Source: Patescibacteria group bacterium (GTDB lineage: Bacteria > Patescibacteriota > Patescibacteriia > JAXHNJ01). Taken from it: a stretch of DNA of 64,000 nt. The notes below the pieces were generated by a model. It was not told the origin of the DNA, made no database searches, and worked only from the letters and a program-made list of their open reading frames with translations. The position numbers were made by a program, and so were the translations under genes. Positions within the stretch are counted from its first letter, which is position 1, and the number at the start of each line of letters is the position of its first letter. Of this stretch, positions 31 through 5,671 are shown piece after piece. Location of the stretch: NCBI GenBank assembly GCA_034520665.1, contig JAXHNJ010000001.1, positions 386,579-450,578 on the forward strand, read 5' to 3'.

Positions 31-2607
31 ATGGCAAAAATTAAGAAAAAAAAACTAGAAGATAACATTTCAGTATTTTCGAATACTCTGCCATATTGGG
101 CAAAATATTTAGCAAAAAACATCTCAAATGCCTATATAATCAACGATGATATTTTGGATGCTGCTTATAATTATTTTCTTGAAGATGAAGGTCTTAAAGA
201 AAAAAGTACTAGACCAAATATAGTTGTAGACCCTATAAGTGCCCATGAATCTGGTTATAAAAAGAATCTTGTGTTGAAAAAAATAAAAAATGTTGAAGGA
301 GTAAATATATTAGCAGAGGAACAATTAATTAAGTGCGGACCAAATATAACGATCATATATGGTAAAACAGGTTCTGGTAAAACAGGGTATGGTAGATTAT
401 TAAAAAAAACATTTTTTTCTAGAAGCGAAGAAGATATCATTCCTAATATTAATGTGGTAGGCAAACATAAGAATATTACTGCCAAATTTGCTTTTGAATC
501 AGAAGACGATATATATGAATTGAAATATCCTGATGATGCTGATAAGCCAGAATTTCGTCAATTTGCTGTTTTCGATAATAATAGCGTCAAAATTCATCTC
601 GATGAGAGAAATAAATTTGAATTTAGGCCAAAGAGTCTAGAATTTTTTGGCAAATTGAATGATGCTATCGAAAAGATAAAAACAAAATTGGATTTTGATA
701 TAGTTGAAAAACAACGATCTAAAGACTATCTGGGTTTATTTGATGGTGAATCCGATATTAATAATTTAATAACTAATATTTCAGACAAAACTAAGATTAA
801 AGATTTAGATAAACATTTACCGTTTACAGAAATTGACAAAGAAGCAATAAAAACACTAGAAGAGGAGAAGATTAAGTTACTAACTCTCAAAAAAGTTAAG
901 GAAATAGATGAATTGGACAGAATTAAAGGTCTTATTGCTAATTTAAAGTTATTAATAAACGATGTAAACAAACTCTTGAATGAGTCAAAAATTCTCGAAG
1001 TAAAGGAAGCTATTAAAAACTATGCTAAAAAGCATAACCTTACTAAGAAAGAAGGATTGGATAATTTTAAATCTGACTCAATAAAGAATATTGGTAGTAA
1101 AGAATGGAAAAATTTTATTCAAGCTGCTGATAAGTTTGCTAAAATTCAGTATTCTAAATATCCCAAAGAAGATGATAAGTGTATTCTTTGTCAACAAACT
1201 CTGTCTGAGGAAGCAATAGATTTAATTAATAGGTACAGAATTTTTATCAAGAGTCAAGCTGAAGTAGAAGAACAAGATGCACTTAAGCAAATTGATAAGC
1301 TGAAAGAAATATATAAAGAATTAAATTTAGATTTATTTAATTCAAACGATATTTTAACTATATGGTTATCTGAAAATAAACCAACTATCCTAACCGAATT
1401 GAAAAAAACAATTAATTCTCAAAAAAAATTAGTCAAAAGTATAACTGCCGATTTAAAAACAAAATCTTATTCTGCTAAAAAAGAACTGAAAATAGATGTT
1501 ACAGATTTAGATATAATTGTAACTGAATTAAAAAGTAGGATAAAGAAACTTGAAAATAAAGAACCAAAAAAAGAAATAAAAGAAATAAATAAGAAAATTG
1601 ATTATTTGAAACACAAAGAAAAATTATCACAACACGAACCAAGTATAAAAAAATATATCAATAAACTAAAGTGGGCAAAAGCTGCTGAGAGAAAAAAAAG
1701 TAAATTGTCATCAATAAAATCTAAAAGTACAAAGGAGGAGAAAAGATTATCTGTAATATATTTTAGTGGTGCTTATATCAAATCCTTTAAAAAAGAATGC
1801 AAAAGATTGAGAGGTAATTTTGGGGTTGAAATTAAGTATACCGGTTCATCTGGAACTTCATTTCGTGAATTAAAAATCAAAAAATATTGTCCTTCTGGTA
1901 TTTTAAGTGAAGGAGAACAGAAGGTAATATCATTAGCGGATTTTATTTCAGAGATTAGATTATCCGGTGTAAATAAAGGCATTATTTTTGATGATCCAGT
2001 TACATCTTTAGACGACGAGAGAAAAGAAAATATTGCTAAAAGACTGGCCGCTGAATCTAAAGAAAGACAGGTTATTATTTTTACTCACGATTTAGTTTTT
2101 CTACATGCACTTATTAGTGGTTGTGCTGATGAAGCAGTAAAACGATCATGTCATTGGATTGAGCAATTAGATGGTGAGGCAGGAAAAATTTCAATAGATT
2201 GTTCACCGGCACTAGAAAAAAAATATAAAAAACCCACAAAAGCACAAATTTATTATAAGAAAGCTAAAAATTCCAATCCACAAGATAGAGAAGTTGATAT
2301 AAAAAACGGCTTTACTTCATTGAGAACTTCGTATGAAGCTCTTGTTATTTTTGAACTGTTTGGAGGAGTTGTAGAAAGATTTAGTGATAGAATAAAAATG
2401 GGTAATTTAGAAAAGGTTATATTTAATGTTAAAATAAGAGATAAAATACTTGATAGTTTTGCTAAATGCTGCCGATTTATGGAAGGCCACTTACATAGTG
2501 ATAAATATTCATATAAAAAGCCAACTTTAGAAGATTTGAATAATGAGATAAATAGATTTATTGAAACTAAGAAAGAACTAAAAGATTTAATAAAATCACA
2601 AAAATAA
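31..2607 (+). CDS. ABC/Rad50-type ATPase with long coiled-coil insert and CxxC zinc hook; RloC-like (anticodon-nuclease-like) or SMC-like defence ATPase
   Basis: In-frame TAA at 28-30 makes the N-terminus complete. Walker A is GKTGSGKTG near aa 110. A long K/E-rich coiled-coil region contains CILCQQ, a CxxC hook. ABC signature LSEGEQK, Walker B IIFDDPVTSLDDE and H-loop IIFTHD lie at aa ~630-700. A ~150-aa C-terminal domain carries R-x3-E (LRTSYE) and a later GHLH motif. Confidence 0.55.
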   Translation: MAKIKKKKLEDNISVFSNTLPYWAKYLAKNISNAYIINDDILDAAYNYFLEDEGLKEKSTRPNIVVDPISAHESGYKKNLVLKKIKNVEGVNILAEEQLIKCGPNITIIYGKTGSGKTGYGRLLKKTFFSRSEEDIIPNINVVGKHKNITAKFAFESEDDIYELKYPDDADKPEFRQFAVFDNNSVKIHLDERNKFEFRPKSLEFFGKLNDAIEKIKTKLDFDIVEKQRSKDYLGLFDGESDINNLITNISDKTKIKDLDKHLPFTEIDKEAIKTLEEEKIKLLTLKKVKEIDELDRIKGLIANLKLLINDVNKLLNESKILEVKEAIKNYAKKHNLTKKEGLDNFKSDSIKNIGSKEWKNFIQAADKFAKIQYSKYPKEDDKCILCQQTLSEEAIDLINRYRIFIKSQAEVEEQDALKQIDKLKEIYKELNLDLFNSNDILTIWLSENKPTILTELKKTINSQKKLVKSITADLKTKSYSAKKELKIDVTDLDIIVTELKSRIKKLENKEPKKEIKEINKKIDYLKHKEKLSQHEPSIKKYINKLKWAKAAERKKSKLSSIKSKSTKEEKRLSVIYFSGAYIKSFKKECKRLRGNFGVEIKYTGSSGTSFRELKIKKYCPSGILSEGEQKVISLADFISEIRLSGVNKGIIFDDPVTSLDDERKENIAKRLAAESKERQVIIFTHDLVFLHALISGCADEAVKRSCHWIEQLDGEAGKISIDCSPALEKKYKKPTKAQIYYKKAKNSNPQDREVDIKNGFTSLRTSYEALVIFELFGGVVERFSDRIKMGNLEKVIFNVKIRDKILDSFAKCCRFMEGHLHSDKYSYKKPTLEDLNNEINRFIETKKELKDLIKSQK

Positions 2608-2611
2608 TACA

Positions 2612-3235
2612 ATGGACATATTATTGAGAAAGATAGATAATAAAATAGATAAGTTATGTGTCAGATTTCAAGAGAATAAGGGTTATATCTTGACCGAAAG
2701 CGATTTAAAGTGTGCGATATATTCAGAATTAGTAAAAATTTCTATACTAAACAAATTTACACAAACGGAAGACAGGGACATTTTTTCAAATCCTGTCCAT
2801 ACAGAATTATCCTGGTATGATGAAAACGATAAATTAAATATTATTCCAGATATAACTATATTAGAACCAAAAAACCTAAGTATTTTGCATTATAAGGGAA
2901 GGCCTGGGGTAAAATTGCCAAGTAAACAATGTTCGTTTTGGGGAAATGCAATCGTATTTGAATTAAAGTTCATTCGTAACAAAAAAGGTATTACACCTAA
3001 AACAATTCACGAATTACAAAAGGATTACCTAAAAGTTATTAGACTAATAGAAATATTCAGTCGACATGGAAGTTCTAATGAATTATTTGTATTTCTTATA
3101 GTATTTAACAAAACAAATATCGTATGTAATGAATTCAAAGATTTTATGAAAGATGTTGATAAAAATCGAAGAGTAAGGTTGCTGTACAAAACAGGAAATG
3201 CAAAATTTCCTTCTTTTAACCAGCATCCAAACTAA
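2612..3235 (+). CDS. hypothetical protein with PD-(D/E)xK-like motifs (putative restriction-endonuclease-fold nuclease), in the same operon as the upstream ATPase
   Basis: Starts 5 nt after the ATPase stop. Motifs TELSWYD, IIPDITILE and AIVFELKF are consistent with an E...PD...ExK arrangement. Confidence 0.4.
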   Translation: MDILLRKIDNKIDKLCVRFQENKGYILTESDLKCAIYSELVKISILNKFTQTEDRDIFSNPVHTELSWYDENDKLNIIPDITILEPKNLSILHYKGRPGVKLPSKQCSFWGNAIVFELKFIRNKKGITPKTIHELQKDYLKVIRLIEIFSRHGSSNELFVFLIVFNKTNIVCNEFKDFMKDVDKNRRVRLLYKTGNAKFPSFNQHPN

Positions 3236-3321: not shown

Positions 3322-4287
3322 TTACTTATTCTTCAAAGGATGAAACTTCTTCATTGTTTTCTCGGCGTAGCGGTCAGACGCATGAACATACCTTGTGGTG
3401 GTGTCTAATGACTCATGGCCGAGTAATATTTGTATAGCGGCCGGATTAGCCCCTTGCTCGGCTAAATAAGTAGCAAAGCCATGGCGCAAAGAATGAGCCG
3501 AAGTCGGTACATTAATTTTTAGTCTTTCGCGGTAATGTTTTATTTTATCTTGAAGATAGTTAATAGAAATTCTTTTTTCGTGTTTTGAGGCCCTTTGACC
3601 GCGGTAAGGAATAAAAAGAGCCGGTGAATCATCGGTGCGGATATCTAAGTATTTATTTAAATGATCCTGGGCCCGCGGGGTTAGATAAACAAATCTTTCT
3701 TTTTTGCCTTTACCCATAACAAATATCTTGCCGGTTTTGTCAATTTGATCGCGGTTTAAATTAACCAGTTCCGAGATACGCAGGCCGGTGGAAAACATAA
3801 CCTCCAGCATGGCCCGGTTGCGCCGAGCTACTTTTTTATTTTTTTCAAAATTTGTCGGGGCTTTGATAAGTTTAATAAGGTCTTCCAGCTCAGCTACTCG
3901 GGGATGTTTTTTTTCAGTTTTAGTTAACTTAACCATCTCCGGCGAAATAGGGGAGTGGTATTCATTATCAATAATATATTTTAGATAAGAACGCAAAGAA
4001 GAAAGCATCCGGTTTATTGAGTATGAACCAAGTTTCTTTTGCCCTTGATCATGTTCAGCCGTCTGTCGATCGATTGAAGTGAGGTAGGCTTTATATTGTT
4101 CAATATCTTTTCTTTTCAGATTTTTAAACTTTAAATGATTATCTTTTAAATAATCTTCAAAAACTTTTAAATCTCTCTCGTAATTGTAAATAGTTTTGTC
4201 GGAATAGTTATTTGTCTGCAACATAAGCAGGTAATCATCAAAATACGGCAGAGAAGGGCTGTTTTTGGTTTTATTAGATTTAGTCAT
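3322..4287 (-). CDS. tyrosine recombinase / phage-type integrase (XerC/XerD family)
   Basis: C-terminal catalytic motifs HSLRHGFATYLAEQG and LLGHESLDTTTRYVH are present, with the Tyr nucleophile region and an N-terminal SAM-like domain. Confidence 0.9.
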   Translation of the reverse strand: MTKSNKTKNSPSLPYFDDYLLMLQTNNYSDKTIYNYERDLKVFEDYLKDNHLKFKNLKRKDIEQYKAYLTSIDRQTAEHDQGQKKLGSYSINRMLSSLRSYLKYIIDNEYHSPISPEMVKLTKTEKKHPRVAELEDLIKLIKAPTNFEKNKKVARRNRAMLEVMFSTGLRISELVNLNRDQIDKTGKIFVMGKGKKERFVYLTPRAQDHLNKYLDIRTDDSPALFIPYRGQRASKHEKRISINYLQDKIKHYRERLKINVPTSAHSLRHGFATYLAEQGANPAAIQILLGHESLDTTTRYVHASDRYAEKTMKKFHPLKNK

Positions 4288-4864: not shown

Positions 4865-5671
4865 TTATAATATTTTCTTAATCTCATTTATTTCAGCAGC
4901 GGCTGCCTCTTCACCCCGTTTGATCAGCTTTTTAGTATTTTTCTGAGCAAAGAATTTTTCTAAACCGACTATCCGGTCACCGCCAACTTTCGGCTCAATA
5001 ATAATATCAGCTTGGTCCATAGATAGTTTAGCTAAACTGGAAGCAACAATATTATAGGAGCGCATAGCTAGCTTAATCATAGAAATATTCTTATGAAAAT
5101 TAAGTTTATGGGGAAAATAGCCGTTTTCAATATTAACAGCCAGGATTATATCAGCCCCCATATTTTTAACCTCGTTATCCGGTACTGGATCAACTAAGCC
5201 GCCATCAGCTAAAAGTCTTTTTTGATAATAGATGGGATCAAAAATTAAAGGGGCCGAAAAGCTAGCTCGGATGGCTTTGATTAAATTACCAGCATTTAAA
5301 ATGACCTTCTGACACTTATTTATATCCGTGGTAATCACCGCCAGCGGAATCTTGAGTTCTTTGAAACTATTGACGGTGAGAAAATTATTTATAAATTTTT
5401 CTAATTTTTTACCTTTAATTAAACCGCCTTTTTTGCCAAAATCTAAAATTGATAATCCGGTTTTCCAGTCCGCTTCTAGTATTGTCTTTTCCACTTTTTT
5501 AATATCTAAGCAAGAAGCATAAAAAGCCCCGATTAAAGCACCAATGGAGGAACCAGCTATATAATCGATAGGTATATTATTTTTTTCTAAAACTTTAATA
5601 ACACCAATATGAGCTAGACCGCGAAATCCGCCGGAACCCAAGGCCAAACCAATTTTTTTTCTTTTAATCAT
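4865..5671 (-). CDS. patatin-like phospholipase
   Basis: GxGxxG oxyanion motif GSGGFRGLAHIG, GxSxG serine motif GSSIG, and a downstream DGG catalytic Asp region. Confidence 0.85.
   Translation of the reverse strand: MIKRKKIGLALGSGGFRGLAHIGVIKVLEKNNIPIDYIAGSSIGALIGAFYASCLDIKKVEKTILEADWKTGLSILDFGKKGGLIKGKKLEKFINNFLTVNSFKELKIPLAVITTDINKCQKVILNAGNLIKAIRASFSAPLIFDPIYYQKRLLADGGLVDPVPDNEVKNMGADIILAVNIENGYFPHKLNFHKNISMIKLAMRSYNIVASSLAKLSMDQADIIIEPKVGGDRIVGLEKFFAQKNTKKLIKRGEEAAAAEINEIKKIL

Follow-up and report, generated by a model that had tools for sequence, protein, structure and literature searches.

RloC, described by Davidov and Kaufmann (2008; PMC2610378) and covered in Pfam by AAA_13, is an anticodon nuclease that excises the wobble nucleotide (PMC2610378). 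The features given for it are the motifs of an ATP-binding cassette (ABC) ATPase, a coiled-coil insert with a CxxC zinc hook, the residues Arg-X3-Glu-X36-52-His and a length of 658-897 aa (PMC2610378). PrrC likewise joins an ABC-type NTPase to a C-terminal RNase domain with an R...E...H arrangement and acts in abortive defence, but it is only ~400 aa long, lacks coiled coil and zinc hook, and always lies in the type I restriction-modification (R-M) locus (hsd) that silences it. Long coiled-coil ABC ATPases beside a nuclease gene are found in Rad50-Mre11/SbcCD, with a zinc hook in Rad50 and SbcC, and in Lamassu. Here we analysed a 64-kb stretch of a Patescibacteria metagenome-assembled genome (the window), at the start of which a gene for an 858-aa ABC ATPase with a zinc hook is followed on the same strand by a gene for a 207-aa protein with PD-(D/E)xK motifs. 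A preliminary description had presented the two as a candidate module for phage defence or translational suicide. We consider it fairly probable that two independent accessory genes abut here by chance, one encoding a single-gene ATPase of the RloC family and the other a free-standing DNase of restriction-endonuclease fold.

All the published RloC features of sequence and size were found in the window ATPase, namely the ABC motifs, a central CxxC hook, the Arg-X3-Glu-X36-52-His pattern and a length within 658-897 aa. Walker A (GKTGSGKTG) occupies aa 111-119, the signature LSEGEQK aa 625-631, Walker B with the D-loop aa 651-663 (IIFDDPVTSLDDE, which includes FDDPVTSLDDE) and the H-loop IIFTHD aa 682-687. 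The two parts of the ABC head are separated by a coiled-coil insert of ~370 aa rich in Lys and Glu (40% charged residues, 20% Lys), and the CILC hook lies at its midpoint, with arms of 184 and 183 aa. Translation thus recovered every ATPase motif of the preliminary description, and an alignment of 40 homologues (37-53% identity) showed little or no variation at the residues of the ATPase, hook and C-terminal motifs, which are hence not a product of chance. The head is preceded by an N-terminal extension with conserved P21, Y22 and W23, which matched no Pfam family and places Walker A at aa 111-118, compared with ~aa 30 in the RloC of Shewanella sp. ANA-3.

This ANA-3 protein served as the published reference. 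It is listed as an RloC orthologue of 746 aa on plasmid 1, beside IS200/IS605 transposases (Table S1, PMC2610378), and its gene was located on plasmid NC_008573.1 (L134:11256-13496, WP_011711575). AAA_13 covers it end to end (1-713/713, 595 bits), and in PADLOC it is assigned to PDC-S06 (PDLC04890, E=2.9e-266), with no separate RloC model among its matches. The window ATPase matched another PDC-S06 model, PDLC04891, over nearly its full length (E=3.3e-129, residues 11-851 on profile positions 5-854 of 858). Since the ANA-3 RloC is itself PDC-S06, PDC-S06 appears to include the RloC family, so that both names seem to cover one family, and the window ATPase falls in a sister sub-model. Direct comparison pointed the same way. 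The BLASTP alignment of the window ATPase with ANA-3 RloC (E=1e-5) was collinear from the hook (CILCQQ/CPFCQQ) through LSEGE, DDP(V/I)(T/S)SLD and (F/L)TH(D/N) into the C-terminal domain, and a profile of the window ATPase family matched a canonical RloC-type profile, built from nine plasmid proteins, with a probability of 98.9% and E=2.2e-17 over residues ~350-695. The likeness to RloC proposed in the preliminary description is therefore upheld for the ABC head, which a coiled-coil zinc hook divides, and for the C-terminal R-x3-E...H, with homology to published RloC over the hook and ATPase, and on its sequence the ATPase is a member of the already described, single-gene RloC family.

Some observations weigh against this assignment. 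AAA_13 gave no match in the window ATPase at E<=1, so the end-to-end coverage seen in ANA-3 RloC is absent, and in the homologues it reached only 49-63 bits over profile positions ~18-600 of 713. In the literature we found no member of the ~860-aa subfamily with experimental evidence, PDC-S06 appearing there only as a predicted candidate. A Pfam scan of the ATPase returned SMC_N alone, below threshold. Searches of PDB sequences with both window proteins and both family profiles gave generic ABC matches (AriA, E=0.006) or nothing, and concatenated segments of Geobacillus kaustophilus RloC, taken by optical character recognition from the supplement of PMC2610378 and used as an approximate search bait, retrieved no canonical RloC.

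For the C-terminal domain, the preliminary description had noted a resemblance to the Arg-Glu-His triad of an anticodon nuclease. The pattern and its spacing are present: R765-X3-E769 is followed by H820 after 50 residues or by H822 after 52, both inside the published X36-52, the residue preceding the His being Gly (H820) or Leu (H822), as against a frequent Ser in RloC. E818 is conserved in 40/40 homologues, H820 and D824 in 39/40 each and H822 in 33/40. Together with H708, R765, Y768, E769 and R783 these make nine polar residues that are invariant or nearly so, and because of them the domain is a candidate for a catalytic site; such conservation argues for one. A search with the domain profile found 1,026 representative clusters (50% identity) at E<=1e-3, and in the best 150 of these the domain was always at residues ~700-860 of ~860-aa proteins of the same architecture, the shorter matches looking like gene fragments.

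Homology of this domain to the RloC nuclease domain was evaluated by profile-profile comparison. The domain alone matched canonical RloC at E=0.023, and a broader C-terminal profile (106 sequences) matched canonical RloC C-termini at E=0.002, with a score of 25.4 over 84 collinear columns. In controls, 30 column-shuffled alignments scored 11.6+-1.7 (maximum 15.2) and the reversed alignment 13.8, so that the observed score stands ~8 standard deviations above the shuffled ones. The broad-profile alignment pairs LRTSYE with the canonical MR-x-I-x-E, and H822 (in HSD) with the histidine of the canonical S-H-S. A second route leads through Yersinia-type intermediates, which are matched by the window family profile at ~1e-24 to 1e-33 and weakly by the canonical hidden Markov model (HMM); along this route H822 again corresponds to the RloC histidine, and the Arg/Glu pair to R783/D786. 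In all, H822 was equated with the RloC histidine in three analyses. The RFSD of the window ATPase is also common to ANA-3 RloC.

On the other hand, the counterparts of the Arg/Glu pair differ between analyses (R765/E769 or R783/D786), and the canonical RloC C-terminal HMM gave no significant match to the window subfamily. The structural model of the domain is an up-down helical bundle (predicted local distance difference test, pLDDT, 83), for which Foldseek ranked HEPN folds first, third and eighth, but every match had E>0.2 and generic and designed helical bundles scored as well as HEPN. R815, the canonical HEPN arginine (R815-x4-H820 in the window ATPase), is retained in only 29/40 homologues. 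An hhalign comparison of the C-terminal profile with one RloC sequence had no power (E=0.25). Several of these points would suit an ATPase that is not an RNase, its C-terminal bundle being a non-catalytic regulatory or partner-binding part of a DNA sensor of the SMC, Rad50 or LmuB type whose effector lies elsewhere or is absent. Likeness to RloC in this part is weak (E=0.002 to 0.023), and models of LmuB and mad3 match relatives of the ATPase in their ATPase portion. We nevertheless regard such a non-catalytic bundle as unlikely, because the set of near-invariant polar residues points to a catalytic site, the R-x3-E...H spacing is that of the published anticodon-nuclease triad, and the alignment score lies far above the shuffled controls, with the same histidine counterpart in three analyses. 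Homology to the RloC/PrrC nuclease domain is suggestive and unproven; probably the domain is related to the nuclease domain of RloC and has diverged from it. DARNA (PD-T7-3), a tRNA-cleaving HEPN protein, was also considered and set aside, its architecture being unrelated to that of the ATPase.

By analogy with the model of RloC action (PMC2610378, PMC3458546, PMC3710099), the ATPase most likely works like RloC. The trigger, be it DNA ends, DNA damage or a signal from the phage, would be perceived by the Rad50-like head together with the zinc hook. On binding and hydrolysing ATP, the protein would free or gate its C-terminal HEPN-type RNase, and cleavage of tRNA anticodon loops by this RNase would arrest translation in an abortive response to infection. 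Candidate catalytic residues are R765/E769 (or R783/D786) together with H820/H822. The 207-aa protein would work independently, as a DNase with D80, E117 and K119 in its active site.

As to the pairing, the preliminary description had given a gap of 5 nt between the two genes; it is actually 4 nt (TAA-taca-ATG), and no evident Shine-Dalgarno sequence was seen before the small gene. No ATPase relative was found within 8 kb of the small-protein loci (0/34), and no relative of the small protein near the ATPase loci (0/87; 80 metagenomic loci and 7 from viral collections, about half of which extend for 2 kb or more past the downstream end of the ATPase gene). When neighbouring ORFs were clustered, no family recurred by the small gene and none was present in more than 6/87 ATPase loci. 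The closest relatives are unpaired as well: a 51%-identical ATPase lies beside AbiEi/AbiEii and has a convergent clpX after it, and the genes for small proteins of 47-52% identity follow csgG or a reverse transcriptase accompanied by an MmeI-type methylase, or belong to a phage-like block. Because none of the 34 and 87 loci carries both genes, a two-gene module is unsupported; absence of co-conservation had been named beforehand as what would count against the module, and that is what was found.

The same-strand layout with a 4-nt spacer is nevertheless what a real operon would look like, and it would be expected if the pair were a lineage-specific two-component system, in which an RloC-like DNA sensor and a PD-(D/E)xK DNase, playing the part of Mre11/SbcD or of a Lamassu effector, are co-translated from one transcript. 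One further locus resembles such an arrangement: in Sulfurimonas sp. CS5 (NZ_CP180409.1; L009:2034-10883) only 10 nt separate the gene for a 1,191-aa SbcC/LmuB-like ATPase from that of a small-nuclease homologue downstream of it. In many loci, moreover, the small gene follows a co-directional gene by 4-25 nt, as a plug-in effector might, and SbcD-type phosphoesterases are immediate neighbours of the ATPase in three loci of its family, some precedent for the pairing of such an ATPase with a nuclease. We judge a two-component system to be quite improbable all the same. Besides the lack of co-occurrence and the unpaired closest relatives, no ABC-head match was found in small-gene loci other than L009, and a large P-loop ATPase accompanied the small gene only there and, divergently oriented, in one more locus (L013). 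The genes that precede the small gene bear no relation to one another (for example NIF3, CsgG and a reverse transcriptase), and every full-length member of the ATPase family, among the best 150 of 1,026 clusters, keeps a putative effector domain of its own. A related idea is that the small family is a plug-in DNase effector, or a solitary restriction-like defence gene, recruited in this Patescibacteria lineage as a second, DNA-directed arm of an RloC-type sensor. It is prompted by the small gene being typically last, 4-25 nt after very different genes, two of which encode Rad50-like ATPases (in the window and in L009), and we hold it to be very doubtful. The 4-nt spacing suggests co-transcription in this genome, yet the pairing is a local juxtaposition rather than a conserved module.

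In L009 the small nuclease gene is also 7 nt upstream of a gene for a 770-aa ABC ATPase with Ppl/GajA-like matches, and two ~390-aa ORFs come before; the locus looks like an undescribed multi-gene operon of defence type.

The 207-aa protein is indeed a PD-(D/E)xK protein, as had been proposed from its motifs. In 37 homologues E65, P79-D80 and E117-x-K119 vary little or not at all, E29, D31, H63, K105 and D138 are also invariant, and the predicted fold is the alpha/beta core of restriction endonucleases, on which the D...(D/E)-x-K motif is placed. Its closest structural matches are restriction enzymes (BamHI/BglII/OkrAI/BstEII-type) and defence nucleases, with CdiA-CT, NucC, Can2 and Shedu nucleases at lower Z. 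Identity to the BamHI-type enzymes and to NucC, Can2 and Shedu is only 7-18%, and the small gene further differs from them in being an orphan in variable contexts, with no adjacent methyltransferase and with no sensor domain, such as CARF or a cyclic-nucleotide pocket, identified. No Pfam, NCBIfam or PADLOC model matched the family. In a census with one genome per species, relatives were found at 34 loci among 185,579 species genomes, patchily distributed over at least ten phyla. Plasmids and phage or viral contigs yielded none. At many loci a gap of 4-25 nt separates the small gene from a preceding gene of the same orientation, and its neighbours are heterogeneous, including housekeeping genes (aconitase, SelA, NIF3, CsgG) and a few of conflict type (SIR2, PIN, a conflict-system nucleotidyltransferase, the reverse transcriptase with the MmeI-type methylase, and ABC ATPases).

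Housekeeping neighbours and absence from plasmids and viral contigs would be consistent with a nuclease of DNA repair or recombination rather than a defence or toxin gene. This role appears highly improbable to us in view of the patchy occurrence without conserved synteny, the several conflict-type contexts, and the restriction enzymes and defence nucleases found as closest structural matches. The small nuclease most likely acts alone, as a solitary restriction-like or toxin nuclease. No methyltransferase gene adjoins it in the window, and N6_Mtase accounted for 1/112 neighbouring ORFs in 30 loci; without an adjacent methyltransferase, the protein would fit a nuclease that is modification-dependent or otherwise regulated.

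A relative of the small nuclease with 47% identity (P0124) belongs to a four-gene block present on two independent contigs (L123:4088-8344 and L124:94-4350), where its gene comes after that of a reverse transcriptase (RVT_1, 528 aa) and before two ORFs, of 269 and 251 aa. On L123 the block has as neighbours an MmeI/Eco57I-type methylase and a serine recombinase, and it may be a DRT-like island.

Compared with the described systems, the window ATPase shares with RloC the split ABC head, the central CxxC hook, a ~150-aa C-terminal part with R-x3-E and a distal His, and the single-gene organisation, often near R-M and mobility genes. It differs by an extra N-terminal domain of ~95 aa and by a C-terminal domain so diverged that neither AAA_13 nor the canonical C-terminal HMM covers it; the His motif reads E-G-H-x-H-S-D in place of the IN-x-x-S-H of RloC, and it lacks the C-terminal HY-x-x-MM block of canonical RloC. 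From PDC-S06 we found no difference at the level of sequence, the match to PDLC04891 being full-length and a conserved partner being absent, as for a predicted single-gene system; PDC-S06 is itself a computational candidate only, and its name overlaps with RloC. PrrC is set apart by its size and by the absence of coiled coil and hook, and the window gave no PADLOC match to PrrC and has no hsd genes near the locus. Readings as SbcCD or Lamassu were rejected in view of the model matches and because no partner is conserved. In contrast to Rad50-Mre11/SbcCD, the gene next to the ATPase encodes a PD-(D/E)xK fold and not an Mre11/SbcD phosphoesterase, and the two are not co-conserved. The Lamassu-type alternative raised in the preliminary description found no LmuA or LmuB match for the window proteins in PADLOC; the small protein is not an LmuA-type effector, and the ATPase carries an effector-like C-terminal domain of its own. 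Coordinates of the features are given in Table 1.

Table 1. Features of the ATPase, small nuclease and recombinase genes (window coordinates; conservation refers to the homologues of the respective protein)
Feature	Position	Strand	Basis and remarks
RloC-family ABC ATPase gene, 858 aa, PADLOC PDC-S06, ~860-aa subfamily	31..2607	+	ORF; full-length PDLC04891 match; profile comparison
N-terminal extension, ~95 aa, before ATPase head	31..315	+	Absent in canonical ~740-aa RloC; no Pfam match
Walker A / P-loop, IIYGKTGSGKTG	352..387	+	aa 108-119; G111, G114 and K117 invariant in 40 homologues
Zinc hook EDDKCILCQQT at apex of coiled coil	1168..1200	+	C384 and C387 in 40/40 homologues; aligns with CPFCQQ of canonical RloC
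C-terminal half of ABC head: LSEGEQK, FDDPVTSLD, FTHD	1897..2094	+	S626, G628, E629, D654, D655 and H686 invariant; align with LSEGE / DDPISSLD / LTHN of RloC
C-terminal helical domain, ~160 aa, candidate HEPN-type RNase (anticodon-nuclease-like)	2116..2604	+	
TSLRTSYEA, R765-x3-E769	2314..2340	+	Both residues in 40/40 homologues; aligns with canonical MR-x-I-x-E
GVVERFSDRI, R783 and D786 (E in most homologues), alternative counterpart of the RloC Arg/Glu pair	2365..2394	+	R783 in 40/40, E/D786 in 34/40 homologues
CCRFMEGHLHSDKY, with E818, G819, H820, H822 and D824; candidate catalytic His motif	2467..2508	+	Conservation in 40 homologues
Stand-alone PD-(D/E)xK nuclease, 207 aa, unnamed family	2612..3235	+	ORF, motif, fold
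Nuclease active-site motifs IIPDITILEP (D80) and VFELKF (E117, K119)	2840..2974	+	Invariant in 37 homologues
XerC/XerD-like tyrosine recombinase, 321 aa, convergent neighbour (genomic context)	3322..4287	-	Pfam Phage_integrase and SAM-like N domain

Genes for R-M and mobility are over-represented right next to the ATPase family as a whole (type I S subunits x6, methylases x7, GmrSD x3, Mrr x2, integrases x3, relaxases x2); 195 plasmid records carry the family, and cultured phage genomes none. In two loci of the family an immediate neighbour is RtcR, which regulates the RNA-repair operon RtcAB, and this link would fit a tRNA-damaging enzyme. On plasmids of Staphylococcus epidermidis (L130:3142-6505) and Yersinia ruckeri (L131:3348-6616) a PDC-S06 ATPase of ~850-880 aa adjoins a ~200-aa serine recombinase, the two genes overlapping by 4 nt in Y. 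ruckeri. Resolvases are likewise listed next to several RloC genes (Table S1, PMC2610378), and the PDC-S06 ATPase may travel as a resolvase-associated cassette.

At the window locus itself, the tyrosine integrase reported 90 nt downstream of the small gene does exist as a recombinase, but it lies at a distance of 86 nt, on the opposite strand, and resembles XerC/XerD more than a typical phage integrase; against NCBIfam it scored 203 bits for XerC and 192 bits for XerD over its full length, below the cut-offs. It is followed by a patatin-like gene and then by housekeeping genes. The former (4865-5671, minus strand) encodes a 268-aa patatin-like phospholipase with weak PADLOC 'Effector' phospholipase matches (E about 1e-6), and could be a housekeeping gene or a stray defence effector. 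In the 2.4 kb of upstream context (L122:368-2249), the ATPase gene is preceded by a 413-aa Pif1/RecD-like helicase, with weak PADLOC PDC-S68 and RecD-like matches, and by an ORF of 168 aa whose PD-T4-6 matches are no more than faint. The first 2 kb of the window, which belong to the ATPase gene, have 27% G+C, compared with about 29-42% elsewhere in the window. ARAGORN found no tRNA or tmRNA in the 64 kb, and a search for att-like direct repeats and terminators around the locus gave nothing above chance. On these data the mobile defence island of the preliminary description is no more than a possible reading.

The claim of a new two-gene system thus does not hold: the pairing is a local juxtaposition, and the ATPase is an addition to the known RloC family. 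The small PD-(D/E)xK family, with neither a model nor a fixed partner, offers a clean case of a candidate solitary nuclease. The ~860-aa ATPase subfamily is large, with its 1,026 clusters, is carried on plasmids of Staphylococcus, Yersinia and others, and combines an extra N-terminal domain with a strongly diverged C-terminal one, in which the conserved R765, E769, R783, H820 and H822 are ready targets for mutagenesis. The overlap of the names RloC and PDC-S06 matters for the annotation of defence systems, and the presence of a published RloC orthologue within PDC-S06 ties this candidate label to a biochemically studied defence protein, giving PDC-S06 matches a mechanism that can be tested.

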